In this document: positions 27,541-61,651 of the stretch, in pieces
How the letters are laid out: every line of letters starts with the position of its first letter
Numbering within the stretch: the stretch's first letter is position 1
Assembly: GCA_020631975.1 (NCBI GenBank)
Contig: JACKGO010000008.1
Coordinates: forward strand, 8,446-72,445
Direction: 5' to 3'
Source: Candidatus Nomurabacteria bacterium
GTDB lineage: Bacteria; Patescibacteriota; Saccharimonadia; Saccharimonadales; CAIOMD01
Length of the DNA: 64,000 nt
Position numbers and translations under genes: made by a program
The notes under the pieces: model-generated
Database searches by the model: none
What the model was told of the DNA's origin: nothing
Seen by the model: only the letters and a program-made list of their open reading frames with translations

Positions 27541-29061
27541 TTAATGACGTGTTCTTCTTGTGGTATAACGTGACCGTGGGAAGAAATTCCTTTGGCCTCT
27601 TGGGCCACTGTTGCCACCATTATTGGATTGGGCTGGTTGTTTACGCCTAAAACCTCGTCCGCCATGTTGAGTAGTTTCCTTACCTTTGCTTCGCTGTCTT
27701 TTAGGTATAATGCTAGCTGTTGGGTCTTTTGGTGGTAAGTTCGCATCTTCTAGCGGCCTATCTGTAACACCAGACTCTATATTTGTTGTTATGATTGGTG
27801 TGATTTTACCCCGATATTTTTGTACACCATATAGGCCAGTAGCAATACCGCTACGTGACACGCCTCTCTGTCGTCTTGTGCCCATGAATCTAGTAGTACC
27901 ACCCATGCGAATTCTGCCTGTTTTTGACGATTTGCCAGCCATTTGTGCCATAAGTTTAGTACTGCCAATGCCCGTCGCTGTAACATCTTCAAATGATTCT
28001 CCATTAGACACTTTTACTCCGTTTGTACCATGCTTTGGATTTGGGTATTGCGATGATTTCCTTCTTCTAAAAGGAATAATTATTGGTACTATCACAATTG
28101 AGCTAGGTTGGTCTTCTTCTTCATTTACGACACCCGTTTCTGGTTCACTCACTACATTATTCTTTGCTGTTATAATTGCCTTTACATATCTATCTCGCTT
28201 CAAGCCTGCCAGTGTTTCTCTTGCATCCTTGGGCAGCTCTTGTGGGTTTCTGTTATAAAGCGAGACTAAATCAACTGTACGTATACCCATCGTATCAGCA
28301 AGTTGTTCTATATCTTTGTTAAGCTGTTTATCTTGCGTTTCTATACCCTTGGGTTTTTGCATAACATCAATCACTTGTTCATATTCTTCAGCACTCAGTT
28401 GTTGCCTCAATAGAGCAGTGACAAGTTTTTCTACTGCTTTGGCACGAGTTAGGGCAAGTGCTTCGTTTTTAGCACTGTCTATTCCTAGACCGGGATTTTC
28501 ACCACCATACATATATGCATAGTCATCTTCGTCTGATGCGCTACCGATAAAACGAATGTCAGTTATTTCACTATCATTCTGTATAAGATCAGTTATTGTG
28601 TCTGCAATTTTTTGCACTTGTGCCATGGCTACTGGTTTTTCTGCCATTGCATCTTTGTCAAAAAGACGAGCCCACTCCATAAGCGCTACCCTTAGCTGTT
28701 CCTTGACTATTTCTTGGCTTGATTCTGGCGTACCTGACTTAGTGTCTTTAGCATCATCTGGTTGCTCTGCAATCTCTACACCGGGCAACCTCAGTGTCGC
28801 ATCTCCGGGTAAGATATCAGGCAAACCTATACCAATACTCGCTTCATGGCTTCTTGTTTGCATCGTTGCAACAGTAGTAAAACCAGTGTGTTCTGGTGCA
28901 CTATTGTTCTGTTGTGTAGCACCCATACTGGCAAGTACAGATAAAGCCACGGAGCCAAACCAGCGACCTATGCGCCATCGTCTTTGATTATTATCTTGTT
29001 CTGTAGTAGATACCTGTTCTATTGTGTGTGATAAGGGAGTTCCTTCTCCATATGTTGACAT
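27541..29061 (-). CDS. two-TM protein with an OmpA/MotB-like segment and an Arg/Gly-rich basic tail
   Basis: 506-aa ORF. TM1 is WFGSVALSVLASMGA. IRFIGSASDED...NEALALTRAKAVEKLV resembles the OmpA C-terminal-like peptidoglycan-binding motif. TM2 is SSIVIVPIIIPF. The last ~150 aa are R/G/K-rich. Confidence 0.5.
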   Translation of the reverse strand: MSTYGEGTPLSHTIEQVSTTEQDNNQRRWRIGRWFGSVALSVLASMGATQQNNSAPEHTGFTTVATMQTRSHEASIGIGLPDILPGDATLRLPGVEIAEQPDDAKDTKSGTPESSQEIVKEQLRVALMEWARLFDKDAMAEKPVAMAQVQKIADTITDLIQNDSEITDIRFIGSASDEDDYAYMYGGENPGLGIDSAKNEALALTRAKAVEKLVTALLRQQLSAEEYEQVIDVMQKPKGIETQDKQLNKDIEQLADTMGIRTVDLVSLYNRNPQELPKDARETLAGLKRDRYVKAIITAKNNVVSEPETGVVNEEEDQPSSIVIVPIIIPFRRRKSSQYPNPKHGTNGVKVSNGESFEDVTATGIGSTKLMAQMAGKSSKTGRIRMGGTTRFMGTRRQRGVSRSGIATGLYGVQKYRGKITPIITTNIESGVTDRPLEDANLPPKDPTASIIPKRQRSKGKETTQHGGRGFRRKQPAQSNNGGNSGPRGQRNFFPRSRYTTRRTRH

Positions 29062-29139
29062 TATTTTATTTCCTTTTTGATATGTTTTTGTTTGTAATTG
29101 TATGATTATACATTAGCACAGTTTTGCTTATTTGTCAAT
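29062..29139 (-). promoter_or_regulatory. promoter-leader module of 27541..29061
   Basis: Minus strand: TTGACA - AATAAGCAAAACTGTGC - TAATGT. This is followed by the leader ...CAATTACAAACAAAAACAT... and SD AAAGGAAA. Confidence 0.55.
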
Positions 29140-29179
29140 TATAAGTTTAAGGTTTTGGCTGACGCACGTTACAAATAAC

Positions 29180-29395
29180 GAGCGCCGTACCCAAAAACTT
29201 AAATGGCTTACTGCTTGAAAGGCCATCCACTATTCTTTGACATTAGTTGTCAATTGGAGCCGAATGAGAGGCTTACATCAAATGAGGGGTTCCTAGTAGA
29301 CAGCCTGTTATCAAGCAACCAAGCCAAGTTTTTAACGAGCTTACTCTATAAATAAGCCCTGCCGTGAGCCAAATAGTCTTTAGCTCACGTATAGG
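29180..29395. repeat. Repeat A, copy 1 (~215 bp)
   Basis: Near-identical to 32516..32719 apart from about 9 substitutions and a 13-14-nt indel. It contains the palindrome TTGACA-N5-TGTCAA at 29237..29253. Confidence 0.85.
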
Positions 29396-29488
29396 GGTCG
29401 TCTATTTATGTACTAATTTTTCTACAGCGCGACATACCATTAAACCTATTCTCATTATCAATAGTTTGATATATACATAGTCGCAAGT

Positions 29489-30364
29489 TTAGCGCTTTAC
29501 ATCATTAAGTATTAGCTCGCCCATACCAAAATCTAGCGTTGCGGAATGATGAGGAGTCGGCTCAGCCTCATTTGCATGAAAATGTGCGTAATGTTCTGAT
29601 ACGTATCGTCTTGTGCGGTCACCATTGGCAATCAATTGATATAGTCTGTCGCCTTCTGGCAAGCTGCGAACAAGCTCTTCTCCGTGTGAGTGTGTACGCA
29701 TTGCTTTATGAATAGCGCCTAGGCCTTCCATTGGGTCCGGTAAGCGTTCAGTGGTCCATAATAAATCTCCATAATATGGATCCTCCCAAGCCATCGCTAT
29801 GCCCCCTAGAGAAATATAAAGTTTATATTCATCAGATATTTGTGTTTCTTTCCAATCTTCAAACGCTCCAGGCTCAAGTAGGTCACCCCTTAAAGCCGAA
29901 CCGATGCCATTTACTTCTTGTTCAACAATAGTATGCCCAGGTGCTTGGTTTACAATATGGTAATTGTCACCTCGCCCAGCGGCACCCCAAGGTACAAGTA
30001 GCGTAGGTTGCGTACCGTGGTATTCGGAAATATCCATAGGCAGATCGCGTGTATGTGGGTAGCGGGATAGCCAATTGTGTAACAAAGCATCCAAGATAAA
30101 TGATTGATTAATTGCCACACTATATTCACGCGAGAAACTAATTCGCCTATGAAGAGGCAACAAGCTCTCTCCGGCGAGTAACACGTCTAAATCTCTAGGG
30201 GGCACACCATCTGCTTGGCGAACAGACGATCCATGAACTAATAATGTATAGTCTTCAAGATCCCGTTGTATTGATGCTTTTTCTGATGCAACACCATTAC
30301 CGCGCCCTTGTGTATGTATACTATTTTGTATTGATTCTAATGTACTATTTCTTAATATTTTCAT
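29489..30364 (-). CDS. Pol-beta-superfamily nucleotidyltransferase domain protein
   Basis: 291-aa ORF. HGSSVRQADGVPPRDLDVLL fits the G[SG]-x(9-13)-DhD NTase signature, and a further acidic strand LPMDISEY lies downstream. The C-terminal ~150 aa are unassigned. Confidence 0.55.
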   Translation of the reverse strand: MKILRNSTLESIQNSIHTQGRGNGVASEKASIQRDLEDYTLLVHGSSVRQADGVPPRDLDVLLAGESLLPLHRRISFSREYSVAINQSFILDALLHNWLSRYPHTRDLPMDISEYHGTQPTLLVPWGAAGRGDNYHIVNQAPGHTIVEQEVNGIGSALRGDLLEPGAFEDWKETQISDEYKLYISLGGIAMAWEDPYYGDLLWTTERLPDPMEGLGAIHKAMRTHSHGEELVRSLPEGDRLYQLIANGDRTRRYVSEHYAHFHANEAEPTPHHSATLDFGMGELILNDVKR

Positions 30365-30370
30365 TAAATT

Positions 30371-30418
30371 CCTTTCGCCGTTTTCGGCTCGTCAGTGCGG
30401 ATACACATCCGCAGAGGG
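30371..30418 (-). ncRNA. type III hammerhead ribozyme motif, copy 1 (HHR-1)
   Basis: Minus strand: CCCUC/UGCGGAU-GUGU-AUCCGCA-CUGACGA-GCCG-AAAA-CGGC-GAAA-GG. The core is complete (CUGANGA, GAA, A15.1:U16.1, C17). Stems I and II are closed and stem III is open. The predicted cut is between 30414 and 30413. Confidence 0.6.
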
Positions 30419-30505
30419 TTGGGGTGGGCGCTTACGAGGGCGCCACACCCCTTTGTGATTGCCCAAAGTGGGCTTTGATGCGCTTATCACAAAAGCGCTG
30501 GCGGT

Positions 30506-30883
30506 TTACCACTGATACGATCTGGGGTAAACTTTGCTTTCGGGTGCAGGGCACACCCACACATCGGATCGGTAGGGCTCCATGAGCACTACCGCTTGTC
30601 CGTTGGTGCACGACGCTCCGCCCTCTAGCACTGCCGGGGGCTGTTCGCCACTGTAGCAGTAGGACGGGCTACCTGGCACGGGCAGCCCTCCGGCACAACG
30701 TTCTCTGGCCTGCTCTTCGATGAGGGCCGAGTTCAGCGGGATAAAAATAGCCCCACTGATGATAGCTGTGATGGCTAGTACCGTCATAGCCACCTTATCC
30801 CTCGCTACTAACGCCATGATTGCCATGGCCAGCAGCACGGCGGTCAATGTAAGTACTGCATATGCAGCATCGTACAGGGACAT
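30506..30883 (-). CDS. small membrane protein with a Cys-rich C-terminal domain
   Basis: 125-aa ORF with a strong SD (GGGAGGAGGGGG) before the ATG. It has two predicted TM helices, then a domain with five Cys. It is visibly more G+C-rich than its neighbours. Confidence 0.55.
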   Translation of the reverse strand: MSLYDAAYAVLTLTAVLLAMAIMALVARDKVAMTVLAITAIISGAIFIPLNSALIEEQARERCAGGLPVPGSPSYCYSGEQPPAVLEGGASCTNGQAVVLMEPYRSDVWVCPAPESKVYPRSYQW

Positions 30884-31016
30884 TGTAGCCCCCTCCTCCC
30901 AAACAAATCTGTGCTCACATTTTGCAAGCAGGCTTCAGACTGGTTGGGTTGCCAACTGCTAAATTGTCTTAACAATCAACAATCCAACCAGTCTTTAAAA
31001 TAATTAATACTTGTTA

Positions 31017-31940
31017 TTAATGTTTCAGCCCACTATCAAATAATGCTGGTGTAGCTATAACTGATCTGTTATTATACAAATCCTCCAGATCAATTAAGTA
31101 GGTGTTGTCTTCAGGATGATTGACAGACCATAACATTCCTGCAACTTGTCCTGGTTCAGCTACAAATTTGATCATCATTTCACCATTGTTCAAAAAATAT
31201 AAAGTCTCTGTTACCTCTAGCCCATTAGTCCCAATGTATCTCGTAACATTGCGCCACTTTTCATGTGGTTCTTTTATAAACACTCCATAAGAAACTAGTG
31301 TAGACAGTAGCTCTTGAGTTTTTACCGGCTCGCCCGCCGCCCAACCAGGATATCCATTATTCCCAACCCATACAACTTCACCTTTTTCTGTTTTTTTACC
31401 CATTATGCCAATTTCAAAACCTTCATTAACCGCATTTTGCTTATCACCTACTCTTCGTTCATAGAGTTCCATGGTTTCTTCCATTGATACAATTGGTTCA
31501 ATGATTGGATATTCTTCTGTCTGGTAACGCTTTAAGCCTCGTTTAGTAAGCTCTTCATCGGGCAAATTATGCATAATAGCAACTTCTGAAATACCATGAT
31601 TTCGTTCATTGATTTTTTGCATTAAACTTGGTGTAACTTCATGCAATCCACCATCAATATCACGTATAATTCCATCGCATAAGATTGTTGCGAAACCACA
31701 TAAATTACAACCTCCAACATAAGGATCAAATGTTTTACTATAATCTACATGATCACCACCCAACTCAGTATGTGGTGGATCGAGTAGTAGTCTTACTGCA
31801 TATATACCCGGATGCGTCTTATACAAATCAGCAGGTAAATTATGATGCTGAAAATCGTCTGTTAAAATTCCCTCGCCTAAGATTGGTAAATCAGGAGAAC
31901 TGGAACGTATAGAATCTTCAATTGCTTCTTGTTTATTCAT
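31017..31940 (-). CDS. hypothetical protein
   Basis: 307-aa ORF directly downstream of HHR-2. No family recognised. Confidence 0.5.
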   Translation of the reverse strand: MNKQEAIEDSIRSSSPDLPILGEGILTDDFQHHNLPADLYKTHPGIYAVRLLLDPPHTELGGDHVDYSKTFDPYVGGCNLCGFATILCDGIIRDIDGGLHEVTPSLMQKINERNHGISEVAIMHNLPDEELTKRGLKRYQTEEYPIIEPIVSMEETMELYERRVGDKQNAVNEGFEIGIMGKKTEKGEVVWVGNNGYPGWAAGEPVKTQELLSTLVSYGVFIKEPHEKWRNVTRYIGTNGLEVTETLYFLNNGEMMIKFVAEPGQVAGMLWSVNHPEDNTYLIDLEDLYNNRSVIATPALFDSGLKH

Positions 31941-31980
31941 TACTTATGATATCCTTTCAGGCTACTAGCCTAATATATTT

Positions 31981-32028
31981 CCTTTCGCCGTTTTCGGCTC
32001 ATCAGTGCAGACACACATCTGCAGAGGG
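31981..32028 (-). ncRNA. type III hammerhead ribozyme motif, copy 2 (HHR-2)
   Basis: Minus strand: CCCUC/UGCAGAU-GUGU-GUCUGCA-CUGAUGA-GCCG-AAAA-CGGC-GAAA-GG. The architecture is the same as HHR-1, with a compensatory G:C to A:U change in stem I. The predicted cut is between 32024 and 32023. Confidence 0.6.
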
Positions 32029-32515
32029 TTGGGGTGGGCTTATTGAGTTACGTCCTACCCCGCTCTATGCCTGCCCATGAGTTGGGCTTGAACGCGCATG
32101 CATAGAAAGCGCGTTTACTATATGACCCTAAGCGAGGGGGTTCCGTTTTATTTACAAGGAAACGGTTTCCTGAACCTCGCCGTCCTAGCACGGCTTCGGT
32201 GTACTCGTTGAGTACACGATCTCCTGCCGCTTAAACGGCAGCGGCTTACGCACAACGTCAGTTGGCTTCGCCAATGGACTCACCTCCTTCCGAGGTGTTG
32301 TCCGAATAAGCGCCAACTCGCTTCTTCGGAAGTATTTTAGCCGCCAGTTGGGGCGGAAGCAGTTTTAGTAACCCAGTGATGCCCATACTGGGGATTCGTC
32401 TAGAGCAGGTGCTCTTCGACGATCCGGACAATCTCGTCGGTGTCGACCACTGACGAGATGCCTGCGGCGATCCGCCGATAGTGGGGCTGCCGCCCCACCC
32501 TGGATCAACCTCGCC
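32029..32515 (-). ncRNA. G+C-rich chain of short perfect hairpins (candidate structured RNA; strand uncertain)
   Basis: No convincing ORF. At least 12 local hairpins of 4-8 bp were read directly, for example GUGGGGC/GCCCCAC, AUCUCGUC/GACGAGAU, CCCAGU/ACUGGG, CUGCCG/CGGCAG and GUGUACU/AGUACAC. The 3' ~90 nt are homologous to the three-hairpin module upstream of HHR-1. Confidence 0.35.
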
Positions 32516-32719
32516 GAGCGCCGTACCCAAAAACTTAAATAACTTACTGCTTGAAAGGACATCCACTATTCTTTGACACAAGTTGTCAATTGGAGCCGAA
32601 TGAGAGGCTTGCATCTTAGTAGACAGCCTCTTATCAAGCAACCAAGCCAAGTTTTTAACAAGCTTACTCTATAAATAAGCCCTGCCGTGAGCCAAATAGT
32701 CTTTAGCTCACGTATAGGA
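32516..32719. repeat. Repeat A, copy 2 (~204 bp)
   Basis: See copy 1. The palindrome TTGACA-N5-TGTCAA is at 32573..32589. The copy starts 13 nt after the stop of 32732..33436. Confidence 0.85.
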
Positions 32720-32731
32720 ATTATCTATCTT

Positions 32732-33436
32732 TTAAACTGTTATATCTATAAGATTTTGTGCTTCTATTTTTTGTGCCAAACTCGTGTGTAAAGTTTCAAA
32801 ACCAGCATGTGCTTCTTGGGTATGCACTCGAAAATCGGACAGCTTAGGATCTGCATCATCTTGATATTCTAAGCAATTAGAGTATCCAGCCTCATTCCAA
32901 GTTACTAATTTTCCTATTACAGAAGGAACCCCTTGACTATCTGAAAATAAACCAAATGCATAGTTGTATGGTAAATAATCACCGGTACCAATTGGACGTA
33001 CATCGTTGCTACTGGTGACATGTCTACTATGCGACATTCTTAGCGTTGCTGCACGCGGATTATTATTCCATGTAGAGCCGGGTGTATTTAGGTAGGAATC
33101 GGTAATTAAATCGTAATCTCTATTGTAGAACCCACGACTACCATCACCCCACTGATCACCATATTCCGAACCAAAACTACTTAAAGTTGTCATTTCCCAA
33201 CTCATATCAACACTTACCGGCGTTCTAAATAGTAGTGCTGACAAGCCTGCCCGGACACGTCGGTGTAAGCCAGGTTCATCTGGGTTATCAATGGCGTTTA
33301 AGTCAACTACAGGCATACTGAACCTATCTTCTAGTGTACCCGTATCTGCACGAACTACCTTGTACAGTGCTGTATTGTCTGCGTCAATTAAAAATTCTTG
33401 TATCTCATTTTTCATTATATTACTCCTTATCGACAT
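32732..33436 (-). CDS. hypothetical protein
   Basis: 234-aa ORF lying 20 nt downstream of the preceding ORF. No family recognised. Confidence 0.5.
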   Translation of the reverse strand: MSIRSNIMKNEIQEFLIDADNTALYKVVRADTGTLEDRFSMPVVDLNAIDNPDEPGLHRRVRAGLSALLFRTPVSVDMSWEMTTLSSFGSEYGDQWGDGSRGFYNRDYDLITDSYLNTPGSTWNNNPRAATLRMSHSRHVTSSNDVRPIGTGDYLPYNYAFGLFSDSQGVPSVIGKLVTWNEAGYSNCLEYQDDADPKLSDFRVHTQEAHAGFETLHTSLAQKIEAQNLIDITV

Positions 33437-33456
33437 ATGTTGTCATAGCTTTATTG

Positions 33457-34317
33457 CTATGAATTGTCATTTGTTATACTGTTTAAAAAATCTCTTTCCC
33501 ATGCAGGTATGTCTTCGTCAGGAGAAGATTGTTGTTGTTCTTCTTCTGATATAGTTTGTAAATACTTACCATAGCGCTGCAGGTTGTCTGATTCTAAAAG
33601 CAATGCATCCCACGCCTCTTTAAGTGAAACACCATCTATACTCCTAATGACTTTAAGCTTAGAGCCATCTGGATTATTGTACATAGTTGCCCACTGCTGC
33701 GGTGTGCCTAGCAATAAGTCATTGGTATTAAAGCCATTATTAAGCGCATTCCAAATGCCTTTTGTAGCAACGTTTCCTATCCACTGTGCCGGTATTAGTT
33801 CTTTTGGTACACCAAAGGTTTCAACACCGTCAATATCAAATGATTCTGGTACAACTTTTACTCGGGCAGATTGACCAGCACCTAGCTGATATCTTGCTGT
33901 ATTGCCAGCGGCTTCTATGGCTGCTGTCCAAGCTGCTCCGTCTCCAGCGTACTTTCTACCCTTACCCAAGGTGCTAAAAATAGGTAATCTGAGTGTTGAT
34001 GTTGCAGATTTTTGACTTTCCCAGCCAGTCAGCTGTTTGCTACCTCCAATACCAATGCGATCGGTGAGTGTAGTAGCGACAACCATTGCGTTATTGCTAT
34101 CTTCTGCAGTAATATCACCAGAATACGCTGCAATAGCGCCCAAGACTTGTTCTGTACGCCATGCATGTCTTTCTCTTGATAAACCACCAGCTATTCTTTC
34201 GGCAGCATCCCCAACAATTTCTAAAGATGCTAGCTGTTCTAGTGTCTCTTTTCTTGTATATCCCCAAAAAGGTGATTTTGGGCATGCGTCTGGTAAAATG
34301 ATATCTTGTTCAATCAT
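33457..34317 (-). CDS. hypothetical protein
   Basis: 286-aa ORF with SD GCAGGAGAAG upstream of the ATG. It is the first cistron of the operon. Confidence 0.5.
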   Translation of the reverse strand: MIEQDIILPDACPKSPFWGYTRKETLEQLASLEIVGDAAERIAGGLSRERHAWRTEQVLGAIAAYSGDITAEDSNNAMVVATTLTDRIGIGGSKQLTGWESQKSATSTLRLPIFSTLGKGRKYAGDGAAWTAAIEAAGNTARYQLGAGQSARVKVVPESFDIDGVETFGVPKELIPAQWIGNVATKGIWNALNNGFNTNDLLLGTPQQWATMYNNPDGSKLKVIRSIDGVSLKEAWDALLLESDNLQRYGKYLQTISEEEQQQSSPDEDIPAWERDFLNSITNDNS

Positions 34318-34800
34318 TTACTTCTCCTGCATTTAATTATGATATGGGCATGTATTACCCGCTTGATGCCGCACTTAAGAATACCCTTTATATAATGATA
34401 GGGTTCTTATTGCCCACCCTGCTATTTGTATGACTTTAAAGGGGGTTGGGCGGCACCAGGCGGGCTCGTTGAACTGCGAGATAGGTGTAACCTACCATAT
34501 CAACGAGTACGCGCCAGAGGCACTTGAGCTATATGAGCACTCTTATATGAATAGATGGTAAAGCATATAGAATTAACAAGTATATTCGCGTACGTTTCTC
34601 GGGCGTACCACAGAACGGGCATGAGTTTCGCATCAAAAGCGAATCATTCCTACAGGACCATGTAAATACACATGTTAGCTCCACAACCGCGAGCATTTAA
34701 GCCGCGTACCCACATAATGCGGGAGGGCTCATTTGCCTTGGTAGCTTGCATCTAGTTTATAAGGTGCGATCGATGGATAAGCCTCTCATTCATTCGATCT
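34318..34800 (-). other. ~480-nt untranslated leader, partly G+C-rich (candidate cis-regulatory or structured RNA)
   Basis: Lies between the promoter at 34801..34836 and the ATG at 34317. It has no ORF and contains several local hairpins. Confidence 0.3.
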
Positions 34801-34836
34801 TGCATACAGTATGTCACGTTTTTGCTTTTTTGTCAA
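34801..34836 (-). promoter_or_regulatory. promoter of the 286aa...NTase operon
   Basis: Minus strand: TTGACA - AAAAAGCAAAAACGTGA - CATACT. It has the same -35 and spacer family as the other orphan-gene promoters. Confidence 0.45.
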
Positions 34837-34876
34837 TACTTAGCATGTTATTGATAATATTTACAGTGGTAGCATT

Positions 34877-38603: not shown

Positions 38604-38668
38604 TGTATATGTTTTTGTTTTAGTTAATTACATATATATTATTAGCACAGTTTTGCTTTTTTGTCAAT
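38604..38668 (-). promoter_or_regulatory. promoter-leader module of large protein A
   Basis: Minus strand: TTGACA - AAAAAGCAAAACTGTGC - TAATAA, then the leader GTAATTAACTAAAACAAAAACATATACA before the ATG. No SD is visible. Confidence 0.55.
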
Positions 38669-60337: not shown

Positions 60338-61651
60338 TTACCCTAATAATTCTGTAAGGAGTTCTTTGGCGACGACGCGTTCATCCCACGGTTGTTTTTT
60401 GCCACCCATATTGCGGTAATCTTGGTGCCCTATACCCGCAAGCACCACAGCATCGCCTGCTTTGGCGTCTTTAAGAGCTTGCAAAATAGCAGCTTTACGG
60501 TCTGCAATTTCAAAATACACTGCATCTGACGCTGCGGCTTCTATACCCTGCTTTACGGCACTACGTATAGCGTCTCCATCTTCTGTATATGTTTCATCAT
60601 CAGTTAAATACACAATATCAGCATTTTGCATCGCTACCTTGCCCATATCTGGGCGTTTTGTGGGGTCTCTATCGCCCGTCGCTCCAAATACAACGCGAAG
60701 TTTACCACGCGTAATACCCCGCACTGCTTGAAGCACGTTCTTTAATGCATCAGGCGTATGGGCGTAATCTACCAACACTGCAAAATCTTGGCCAGCGACT
60801 ACAGGTTCTAGGCGACCTGCCACAACCGCTAAATTACCAATACCGGTGGCAATGGCTTTTTTATCTAATCCAATAATTACCCCTACGGTTACAGCCATGG
60901 CAGCATTGTAGACATTGAATTCCCCTACCATTGGCATAGACACATCAGTGCGACCGAGCTTGCTCACAACTGAAAATGAGGTTCCTTCTGGAGTAAGTTG
61001 CATCTCTTTAATTTGGTCTGTGGCATTATGCAGGCCAACACTATGCAAATGTTTTTTGACTTTCCTACCAAAGTATTCAAACCACTCATCGTCGGCATTA
61101 AGCACAACGTCTTTTGGCTGAAATTCGGTAATTAAACGTGCCTTTGCCGCTGCGTAGTTATCCATAGTTTTATGGTAATCGAGATGATCTTGGCTAAGGT
61201 TTGTAACGACTGCTATGTCTACATTTACTCCATAAATTCTATGTTGATCAAGCGCATGACTAGTGACTTCTAACACAACCCAGTCTACCTTGGCATTTTT
61301 AGCCTTTTTGAAAAACTTTTGTACGCTCCATGGGCTGGCAACAGTCATGTGTGTTGTATTATCTTGGTAGTTACCTGCCACCTCTGTAAAAGCCGTAGTG
61401 TAAACCGCTGTTTTTAAGCCACTTTGCTTTAACATGGCGTTTATAAATGCACAGGTTGTTGTTTTGCCATTTGTACCAGTAACGGCGATGACCTTAGCTG
61501 CTTTGGGTGCCTTACCATATAGCGCATATGCTGTTTTTGCCTTGCCGAGCCGATACGTTTCTTCGGCACGAGAAAGCCGTTGTTTTGGTATAATTTTTCT
61601 TGCTAATTTTTTTACACTACTCATATACAACATATAATACCGTAAATACAC
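60338..61651 (-). CDS. murE: Mur ligase family protein (MurE-like)
   Basis: The ATP-binding motif VIAVTGTNGKTTT and the central and C-terminal Mur ligase domains are present. The usual DNPR specificity motif is replaced by DDETYTED. The true start may be an internal Met. Confidence 0.75.
   Translation of the reverse strand: MYLRYYMLYMSSVKKLARKIIPKQRLSRAEETYRLGKAKTAYALYGKAPKAAKVIAVTGTNGKTTTCAFINAMLKQSGLKTAVYTTAFTEVAGNYQDNTTHMTVASPWSVQKFFKKAKNAKVDWVVLEVTSHALDQHRIYGVNVDIAVVTNLSQDHLDYHKTMDNYAAAKARLITEFQPKDVVLNADDEWFEYFGRKVKKHLHSVGLHNATDQIKEMQLTPEGTSFSVVSKLGRTDVSMPMVGEFNVYNAAMAVTVGVIIGLDKKAIATGIGNLAVVAGRLEPVVAGQDFAVLVDYAHTPDALKNVLQAVRGITRGKLRVVFGATGDRDPTKRPDMGKVAMQNADIVYLTDDETYTEDGDAIRSAVKQGIEAAASDAVYFEIADRKAAILQALKDAKAGDAVVLAGIGHQDYRNMGGKKQPWDERVVAKELLTELLG

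Follow-up and report, generated by a model that had tools for sequence, protein, structure and literature searches.

Two type III hammerhead ribozymes predicted between orphan genes of a Candidatus Nomurabacteria chromosome

The window analysed here, a stretch of 64,000 nucleotides (nt) from a Candidatus Nomurabacteria bacterium (assembly GCA_020631975.1, contig JACKGO010000008.1, positions 8,446 to 72,445), carries on its minus strand two copies of a short RNA element, HHR-2 and HHR-1, which are very probably genuine type III hammerheads and, judged by their sequence, are predicted to cleave themselves. Their identity as hammerheads is secure because the core, the spacing of the motif and the covariation of its helices recur in a subfamily of relatives. 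Both copies are placed between genes, and we regard it as likely that they serve as protein-independent processing and insulating sites between the genes of a single minus-strand unit. What the thousands of bacterial and phage hammerheads do is described as an open question in a review (PMC6155905). The present locus offers a clean and testable example, as it holds two intact ribozymes within one operon of orphan genes and has a diverged ortholog in which the ribozyme module has been kept and its neighbours have been shuffled.

An earlier note on this DNA, made from the letters alone, had spelled out HHR-2 on the minus strand, and its reading is letter-exact: from 32028 to 31981 the strand reads CCCUC UGCAGAU GUGU GUCUGCA CUGAUGA GCCG AAAA CGGC GAAA GG. 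The parts of this copy and the position of its sister copy are as follows (bp, base pairs).

31981..32027, minus strand: HHR-2, type III hammerhead, recognised by its sequence, by Rfam RF00008, by the family model R1 (see below) and by its fold
32027-32025, minus strand: 5' strand of HHR-2 stem III, CCU
32024, minus strand: C17 of HHR-2, the cleavage-site base
32023-32006, minus strand: stem I hairpin of HHR-2, 7 bp with a GUGU loop
32005-31999, minus strand: core strand CUGAUGA of HHR-2
31998-31987, minus strand: stem II hairpin of HHR-2, GCCG-AAAA-CGGC, 4 bp
31986-31983, minus strand: GAAA of HHR-2
31982-31981, minus strand: 3' strand GG of HHR-2 stem III; with A 31983 it forms AGG (31983-31981), which pairs with CCU (32027-32025)
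32023..32024, minus strand: predicted self-cleavage site of HHR-2 between C17 (32024) and U1.1 (32023), from hammerhead numbering applied to the sequence
30371..30417, minus strand: HHR-1, the sister copy, recognised by its sequence, Rfam and R1, with a predicted cut at 30414/30413

The invariant core is complete (C3 U4 G5 A6 N7 G8 A9, G12 A13 A14, A15.1:U16.1, and C as H17), and the topology is that of type III, with stems I and II closed by loops and stem III, which has 3 bp in both copies, open to the flanking RNA. Cleavage of HHR-2 is predicted to leave an upstream RNA that ends in ...CCCUC with a 2',3'-cyclic phosphate and a downstream RNA that begins with 5'-OH-UGCAGAU.... HHR-1 lies on the same strand, 1610 nt downstream of HHR-2. 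It differs from HHR-2 at N7 (C in HHR-1, U in HHR-2), at the fourth pair of stem I (G:C versus A:U) and at the pair closing the loop (U:A versus U:G); the stem III strands CCCUC and GAAAGG are identical, and a shared block of 61 nt is 93% identical. The statement of the earlier note that N7 is the only difference in the core is thus borne out, and N7 is free in the family (U in 74, C in 8, A in 5 and G in 1 of 88 members). Likewise, the exchange of G:C for A:U in stem I is, as had been proposed, a true compensatory double change between the two copies, and the ATG of the downstream open reading frame (ORF) of 307 amino acids (aa), at 31940, does lie 41 nt from the last G of HHR-2.

With the Rfam gathering thresholds, a scan of the whole window returned transfer RNA (tRNA) only and no hammerhead. 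An E-value scan of positions 29500-33500 gave exactly two matches, both to Hammerhead_3 (RF00008, clan CL00010), with 32.1 bits for HHR-1 (E = 3.8e-4) and 31.2 bits for HHR-2 (E = 6.8e-4), the E-values being those of this 4-kb scan; both copies align to the core of the model with high posterior probability. A 27-nt pattern consisting of the core and stem II matched twice in the window versus not once in 100 shuffles. A family covariance model, R1, built from an 88-sequence alignment termed A2, was applied to all of the window without filters and scored HHR-1 at 67.0 and HHR-2 at 66.3 bits, scores which are not fully independent as the two copies are among the 88 training sequences; relatives outside the training set score 52-75 bits. 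The next best match of R1 in the window (60582-60618, minus strand, 14.7 bits, E about 0.05) has the CUGAUGA and GAAACA strands and essentially no stems I and II, and was dismissed as a chance match. The window copies, and probably many of their relatives, are below the Rfam threshold and are therefore missed by routine annotation.

The wider subfamily was collected by several pattern scans. An exact pattern found two species-representative genomes, a metagenome-assembled genome (MAG) of Candidatus Moraniibacteriota and another uncultured bin, in which stem I differs. A looser pattern fixed only loop 1, the core and CGAAA and set no constraint on stem II, on stem III or on the four outer pairs of stem I; it found 111 viral contigs of IMG/VR, nearly all with the 37-nt spacing of the window copies. 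A scan of metagenomes for the CCUC/GAAAGG variant of stem III added 36 further contigs; a scan of viral contigs with the stem III pattern specific to the window gave 0 matches. In total, the subfamily comprises at least 130 distinct members from viral, metagenomic and genome contigs, which have the spacing and the loop 1 sequence GAUGUGURUC in common. All seven pairs of stem I are present in 89 of 93 distinct sites and a 4-bp stem II in 90; stem III varies more in length (3, 4, 5 and 6 bp in 9, 20, 36 and 21 sites, respectively). The collection of homologs and the scoring of their covariation, which the earlier note had asked for, have accordingly been carried out on the 88 distinct members of A2, and all three helices covary strongly. 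Paired cells make up 93.2% of this alignment, versus 68.5% after shuffling and 30-47% when the pairing partners are slid by 1-3 columns, and the covariation score is 0.666 versus 0.179 and 0.04-0.11, respectively. Both sides have changed in 12 of the 17 pairs, and the core columns are invariant across the 88 relatives. The loops are strongly conserved as well (loop 1: GUGU in 52 and GAGU in 25 of 88; loop 2: AAAA in 58 and GAAA in 11 of 93), a pattern that fits a tertiary contact between loop 1 and loop 2.

Same-strand clusters of two to five copies of the subfamily occur on other bacterial contigs. The copies of loci L133 (at 5337, 6288 and 8771) and L134 (at 895 and 1263) share one 206-kb contig, and further clusters are found at L135 (3036, 3858 and 4884) and L140 (3451, 6117 and 7061). 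With three to five copies at a spacing of 0.4-2.7 kb, these clusters are denser than the pair in the window. Stem II and the identical stem I loop (GAUGUGUAUC) also recur in the hammerheads of two tiny IMG/VR contigs, L041 (366 nt) and L051 (377 nt). Judged by their length and sequence, these two may be plant sobemovirus satellite (virusoid) RNAs and not fragments of phages.

Further support comes from a diverged ortholog of the HHR-1 module. HHR-2 and HHR-1 bracket two ORFs and are followed by a third, all on the minus strand (GC, guanine plus cytosine content).

31017..31940, minus strand: 307-aa orphan ORF, immediately downstream of HHR-2
30506..30883, minus strand: ORF125, 125 codons, 57% GC, with GGAGG upstream
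29489..30364, minus strand: 291-aa ORF, downstream of HHR-1

A homolog of ORF125 with 77% identity is found on two ENA contigs, L156 and L157. The entire block of 115-nt spacer, ORF125, three predicted hairpins (hp3, hp2 and hp1, in this order) and hammerhead aligns between these contigs and the window at 87% identity. The ribozymes of L156 and L157 score 72.1 and 69.7 bits with R1, and every base of the core is kept. The changes in the ribozyme are C to U at N7, the compensatory G:C to A:U exchange in stem I that also separates the two window copies and, in L157, U:A to U:G at the base of stem I. The hairpin prefix has changed from U:A to U:G in hp1, from G:C to G:U in hp3 and in the loops of hp1 and hp2, and one of the changes in the linkers extends stem III to 4 bp. 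Thus, about 11 substitutions in prefix and ribozyme have left no pair broken. According to the earlier note, homologous loci with conserved flanks and a lost core would have spoken against a hammerhead; in L156 and L157 the core is retained, which favours it. For HHR-2, a search by way of the 307-aa protein and the metagenome scan found no ortholog, only one short contig of this same species (L143), because the gene downstream of this copy is an orphan; the 307-aa protein matches nothing but its own cluster among 5.8 billion proteins.

The genes around the module have been rearranged between the window and L156. In L156 an ortholog of the 291-aa gene (81-90% identity) lies upstream of the module of ORF125 and hammerhead, and downstream of it, at 1388-2176, follows a 262-aa paralog with 30% identity to the 291-aa protein. 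Homology to the window stops 3 nt past stem III, and a new start codon appears within 6 nt. As the neighbours differ and the block aligns, the ribozyme module has been kept as a block and the genes have been shuffled around it. A single hammerhead copy is visible in L156, beside these different neighbours.

Upstream of stem III, both copies are preceded by hairpins, which the earlier note had described as a shared prefix. In the following, unit 2 denotes the surroundings of HHR-2 and unit 1 those of HHR-1.

32031..32061, minus strand: hp1 of unit 2 (GGGGUAGG...CCCACCCC), predicted by folding, 2 nt (AA) upstream of stem III
32073..32087, minus strand: hp2 of unit 2 (GCCCA ACUCA UGGGC), predicted by folding
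32091..32115, minus strand: hp3 of unit 2 (AACGCGC...GCGCGUU), predicted by folding
30451-30421, minus strand: hp1 of unit 1, predicted by folding
30473-30461, minus strand: hp2 of unit 1, predicted by folding
30498-30480, minus strand: hp3 of unit 1, predicted by folding
30421..30498, minus strand: complete hp3-hp2-hp1 prefix of unit 1, predicted by folding and kept in L156 and L157, where all changes are wobble-compatible or lie in loops

All three hairpins are indeed present upstream of both copies and are recovered by unconstrained folding. The claim that the prefix is conserved in structure rather than in sequence holds for the loops, which differ, and for hp3, whose register shifts: a GCGC/GCGC core is common to both units, and one copy lengthens the helix inward, its sister outward. 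It does not hold for the outer stem of hp1 and the stem of hp2, which are identical in sequence. These comparisons were made by eye; MAFFT mis-registers hp1 of unit 2 in the alignment of the four sequences. Hairpins hp2 and hp3 were seen only in the window, L156 and L157, with no double compensatory changes, and are absent from most relatives. The three-hairpin prefix is therefore real but not one conserved module, hp1 being family-wide and hp2 and hp3 lineage-specific.

In the family, the 50-nt segment upstream of stem III has a mean folding energy of -14.9 kcal/mol, compared with -7.0 kcal/mol in control windows. A hairpin with a helix of at least 4 bp ends no more than 2 nt from stem III in 91 of 127 members (about 72%) versus 147 of 635 random positions (23%), and in 77 of the 127 its 3' end directly abuts stem III with a gap of 0. 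Since the sequences of these hairpins are many and unrelated, the flanking hairpin is a structural regularity. The tandem copies on L140 share a two-hairpin prefix of their own. A near-identical flanking hairpin, GUGUCUUCAAAGACAC with variable pairs, was observed at many unrelated IMG/VR loci (L012, L015, L019, L020, L026, L061, L067, L077 and L082), and loops of the (G/C)UUCAAA type occur in the flanking hairpin of many metagenome copies. Such conservation of the hairpin sequence suggests a specific partner, either a protein or a tertiary contact, and not merely a stabilising stem. A tRNA-like nature of the flanking hairpin was rejected as a general explanation, real tRNAs being found just upstream only in L155. 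There, at 861-1086, a hammerhead follows about 20 nt downstream of a tRNA-Arg/tRNA-Ala pair on the same strand and could trim the 3' trailer of the tRNA; a tRNA beside the hammerhead was found in 0 of 32 other loci scanned.

The placement of the ribozymes between genes is a property of the family. On the same strand, the upstream stop codon lies at a median of 46 nt before the cut and the downstream start codon at a median of 93 nt after it, with many at 60-75 nt, and 107 of 128 sites lie outside any long ORF. Those upstream genes of phage contigs which could be named belong to anti-restriction protein, ATPase and gamma-glutamyl cyclotransferase families (PHROG). Major capsid genes were considered as the genes preceding the phage copies and rejected, as the PHROG matches were to other families or none. 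In the subfamily with the GAAAGG strand, a start codon follows within 12 nt of CGAAA in 11 of 32 members versus 2 of 88 others. The two window copies differ in this respect. The GAAAGGA of HHR-1 is at the same time the ribosome-binding site for the 291-aa ORF, the AUG being located 6 nt past stem III, and in L156 the ribosome-binding site is likewise within stem III. This is not the case for HHR-2, where the AUG follows 42 nt after CGAAA and has a GAAAGGA site of its own behind a small hairpin.

31959..31971, minus strand: small hairpin AGGCUAGUAGCCU, an inverted repeat between HHR-2 and the ribosome-binding site
31958-31952, minus strand: ribosome-binding site GAAAGGA of the 307-aa ORF

Based on these features, processing and insulation might proceed as follows. 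In the nascent RNA each ribozyme would fold and cut after C17 (32024 in HHR-2, 30414 in HHR-1). The 3-bp stem III, possibly aided in folding by stacking on hp1, would let the products part at once. The upstream product would carry a stable run of hairpins and a 2',3'-cyclic phosphate at its end, which should slow down 3' exonucleases. The downstream product would start with a 5'-OH, followed by stems I and II as two compact hairpins shortly before the ribosome-binding site, and should be a poor substrate for ribonucleases (RNases) that depend on a 5'-monophosphate; its gene would thereby gain a fixed 5' leader regardless of the sequence upstream. At HHR-1, the GGA of the ribosome-binding site would be the 3' strand of stem III and be masked by CCUC, so that cleavage would free the site. 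At HHR-2, the ribosome-binding site would be separate, 23 nt further on past the small hairpin. As the net effect, the stability and translation of adjacent cassettes of orphan genes would be uncoupled from each other.

One might go further and speculate, with considerable reservation, that hairpin or hairpins, short-stem-III hammerhead and ribosome-binding site form a portable cassette junction with cleavage-dependent translation, or else that the 1.6-kb stretch of RNA from one copy to the other becomes circular. If true, such a junction would serve uncultured bacteria, relatives having been found in Candidatus Moraniibacteriota and other metagenome bins, as well as their phages, with the hairpin capping the upstream RNA and the downstream gene having a protected 5' leader. 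In the GAAAGG subfamily the CCUC strand would mimic the anti-Shine-Dalgarno sequence of 16S ribosomal RNA and permit translation only after cleavage, and the insulation would allow orphan genes to be swapped at the edges, as between the window and L156. More generally, the family may provide clues to the purpose of hammerheads in its flanking hairpin (about 72%), in a tighter tie to the upstream than to the downstream gene, and in the ribosome-binding site that one third of the GAAAGG subfamily has within stem III.

The locus is part of a bacterial chromosome, as polA, dnaG, rpoD, argS and groEL are present in the window, and the window is identical to a contig of the MAG GCA_020428475.1. Two promoter-like motifs and two copies of a direct repeat frame the ribozyme pair.

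34810..34837, minus strand: promoter-like motif P2 (TTGACA...), a 28-nt motif of which this is the closest copy upstream
29112..29139, minus strand: promoter-like motif P3, the next copy downstream, which marks the start of the next unit (506-aa ORF)
32515..32728, minus strand: repA, copy of a 215-nt direct repeat with about 90-94% identity to 29179-29405, following the 234-aa ORF
29179..29405, minus strand: repB, the second copy of the 215-nt repeat, following the 291-aa ORF and preceding the next promoter

The 28-nt motif, ATTGACAAAAAAGCAAAACTGTGCTAAT, consists of TTGACA, a spacer and TGnTAAT and occurs six times on the minus strand (43159-43132, 38668-38641, 34837-34810, 29139-29112, 18710-18683 and 15763-15736). 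Four of the copies were examined, those at 38668, 34837, 29139 and 18710, and all four have a minus-strand ORF downstream of them; the motif is probably the strong promoter consensus of this organism. Around the ribozyme pair it is found only at 34837 and 29139. Both ribozymes are therefore probably part of one minus-strand transcription unit, predicted to start at the 34837 motif and to end near repB (29405-29179). Reading from P2 to P3 along the minus strand, one meets in turn a leader of about 490 nt, ORFs of 286 and 234 aa, repA, a GC-rich non-coding stretch of 389 nt, hp3 to hp1 and HHR-2; then the 307-aa ORF, a spacer, ORF125, hp3 to hp1, HHR-1, the 291-aa ORF and repB. The leader (34320-34810, minus strand) comprises about 490 nt without an ORF between the 34837 motif and the ATG of the 286-aa ORF (34317); it matched no Rfam family at the gathering threshold and may be a long structured leader. 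The two repeat copies bracket a 3.3-kb segment that holds both hammerheads. Within each copy lie the inverted repeat TTGACAACTxxTGTCAA, a hairpin (GAGCUAAAGACUAUUUGGCUC) and a stem that weakly resembles a terminator; the 215-nt repeat gave no Rfam match, and a diverged copy (about 70%) is present in L156 and L157.

The protein of the 291-aa ORF belongs to a small family, with four cluster representatives among 1.8 billion (relatives P0005-P0007). The invariant motifs of the family are GS...DxD, PWG and N..SA.RG..PG.F..W, and the GS...DxD motif suggests a nucleotidyltransferase of the Pol-beta type. An AlphaFold model computed from a four-sequence alignment was unusable, with a predicted local distance difference test score (pLDDT) of 34. 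Pfam, PHROG and PADLOC gave no match of note for the neighbouring ORFs, and blastn of 29000-34500 against 50,697 phage records gave none. No phage-type genes could be recognised among the ORFs of the window that were tested, so that a prophage context was not found. The setting is a chromosomal island near dnaG and rpoD, and, the neighbours being orphans, it may be a degraded mobile island.

Several points count against a role of the hammerheads in processing and insulation and have to be weighed. Neither copy reaches the gathering threshold of RF00008 (48.5 bits); the scores fall short because the model expects a stem III of 7 bp and only 3 bp are present, and the threshold is an annotation cut-off and not a biochemical criterion. 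A stem III of 3 bp belongs to the shortest class of the subfamily (9 of 93 sites), which makes the efficiency of the monomer uncertain, and minimum free energy folding of contexts of 144-147 nt forms stems I and II and not stem III. The gap between hp1 and stem III is 2 nt in the window lineage versus 0 in most members, and stacking is thus less certain. In phage contigs the largest cluster of neighbouring proteins numbers 22 upstream versus 2 downstream, and the main beneficiary may be the upstream RNA and not the downstream mRNA. With regard to the transcription unit, the weak terminator-like hairpin of repA leaves room for HHR-2 being transcribed from an unrecognised start instead of P2. 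Finally, every functional step beyond the placement of a hammerhead between genes is inferred.

The alternative that survives best, which we consider unlikely, takes up the bias towards the upstream side. The ribozyme would mainly serve the upstream RNA by releasing a GC-rich, hairpin-rich RNA of about 480 nt with an exact, hairpin-protected 3' end, namely 32514-32025 in unit 2 and ORF125 with the prefix in unit 1, and the downstream gene would be incidental. The candidate RNA of unit 2 includes the following stretch.

32126..32514, minus strand: GC-rich (57%) non-coding stretch with stops in all three frames and a predicted chain of local hairpins

This stretch and ORF125, both of 57% GC in a genome and in surroundings of about 40%, fold beyond shuffled sequences (z-scores of -6.1 for 32520-32030 and -5.1 for ORF125). 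Moreover, spacer, ORF125, prefix and hammerhead have been kept as a block in L156 up to the point just past stem III where the homology ends and a different gene follows, and in phage contigs it is the upstream gene that is the conserved neighbour. The two GC-rich stretches are, however, dissimilar to each other and match no Rfam family (for 32126-32514, at E <= 10), and the idea that the stretch of unit 2 is a decayed ORF125 was discarded as there is no protein or DNA similarity between them. ORF125 itself can be read in both ways. Compared with its homolog, it has a dN/dS (ratio of nonsynonymous to synonymous substitution rates) of 0.56 and differences of 22/14/22 over the codon positions, that is, no bias towards the third position, and one 60-nt block is unchanged; yet the frame of 125 codons with its GGAGG has stayed intact through 58 substitutions without indels, and the product has the look of a two-helix membrane protein. 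Judged by these features, ORF125 could encode a small two-helix membrane protein, be a structured RNA, or both. In addition, the ribozymes of the family are usually preceded by an ordinary protein gene with its end 30-60 nt ahead of the cut.

It is less probable still that the two hammerheads delimit an RNA of 1610 nt (32023-30414), carrying the 307-aa ORF and ORF125, that is circularised by reversal of the ribozyme reaction or by an RtcB-type ligase in the manner of a retrozyme or viroid. The 3' end made by HHR-1 can re-pair with the catalytic domain of HHR-2, given the identical stem III strands and the 61-nt block of 93% identity; a recent duplication, however, suffices to explain this identity, and a stem III of 3 bp favours release over ligation. 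Circular or spliced products of clustered hammerheads were raised in PMC3088659 and were also sought there, with none found. Members of the subfamily are mostly single or irregularly spaced, and in L156 a single copy is visible beside different neighbours.

Similarly improbable is a conditional cleavage in which the prefix or the GC-rich leader senses a ligand, a protein, temperature or the translation of ORF125 and gates stem III. With a stem III this short, the active fold is marginal, ORF125 ends 7 nt before hp3 so that ribosomes could remodel the prefix, and the 110 nt upstream hold more hairpins across the family than in controls (1.7 versus 1.0-1.1); regulated cleavage of phage hammerheads has been suggested (PMC3088659). 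On the other hand, neither the comparison of the two copies nor L156 reveals a conserved alternative pairing that would compete with the core, hp2 and hp3 are missing in most relatives, and there was no match to a riboswitch-like family. That the copies are inactive relics or chance look-alikes spread by local duplication can practically be dismissed: the sub-threshold Rfam score, the 3-bp stem III and the recent duplication, by which the copies are not mutually independent, are outweighed by a core intact in both copies and in L156/L157, where the substitutions fall in loops, at N7 or preserve pairing, and by the same architecture in at least 130 distinct sequences with strong covariation. 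Thus, processing and insulation between genes remains the reading we favour.

Hammerheads that are clustered between non-conserved genes are already known from bacteria and their viruses. Perreault et al. (2011) reported that several hammerheads frequently flank individual genes or small groups of genes in prophages and proposed the processing of long transcripts; in three tandem sets all ribozymes cleave in vitro, and the set of Agrobacterium tumefaciens does so in Escherichia coli as well (PMC3088659). In the review by de la Pena et al. (2017), prokaryotic hammerheads are described as flanking small non-conserved ORFs, with a persistent link to phages (PMC6155905). The consulted passages of these two papers mention neither a hairpin abutting stem III nor a ribosome-binding site within stem III, and neither a module kept amid gene shuffling nor a chromosomal, non-prophage setting. 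Our literature search found no paper that links hammerheads with Patescibacteria.

As in the clustered prophage hammerheads, the two copies of the window form a same-strand pair that brackets genes, the ORFs are non-conserved and of unknown function, and a processing role is proposed; the published sets include type II and mixed sets, whereas the window has type III with a short stem III and a flanking hairpin (PMC3088659). The copies in the window are also not in a prophage, whereas the subfamily is abundant in viral contigs of IMG/VR. With the type III hammerheads of plant satellites and viroids (RF00008) they share the topology, the core, a 7-bp stem I ending in GAU-GUGU-AUC and a 4-bp stem II with an A-rich tetraloop. 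Those ribozymes, however, process the multimers that arise as intermediates when circular RNAs replicate, and their stem III is longer, whereas the window copies are encoded in DNA and located between genes. A very short helix III and a marginal monomer are, by contrast, features in common with the dimeric hammerheads of avocado sunblotch viroid, the newt satellite and Penelope-like elements (PMC6155905). Helix III of the dimeric forms is looped, and tandem copies a few hundred nt apart build a double hammerhead. In the window, helix III is open, the copies are 1.6 kb apart, and the flanking hairpin is the likely stabiliser.

Two further systems invite comparison. In the early mRNA of phage T7, RNase III cuts between genes. 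As at these sites, the predicted cut in the window lies between cistrons, and it would leave a hairpin at the end of the upstream RNA and a defined 5' end downstream, a layout of hairpin and cut that is found in about 72% of the family. The cut in the window is, however, predicted to be made by the RNA itself, leaving a 2',3'-cyclic phosphate and a 5'-OH and requiring no host enzyme. Synthetic insulators of the RiboJ type combine a hammerhead from a satellite RNA with a hairpin before the ribosome-binding site. The same order of parts is found at HHR-2, where the ribozyme is followed by the small hairpin (31971-31959), the ribosome-binding site and the AUG; the element of the window is natural, and its insulating effect is putative. 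Such a standardisation of the leader would fit the shuffling of cassettes seen in L156.

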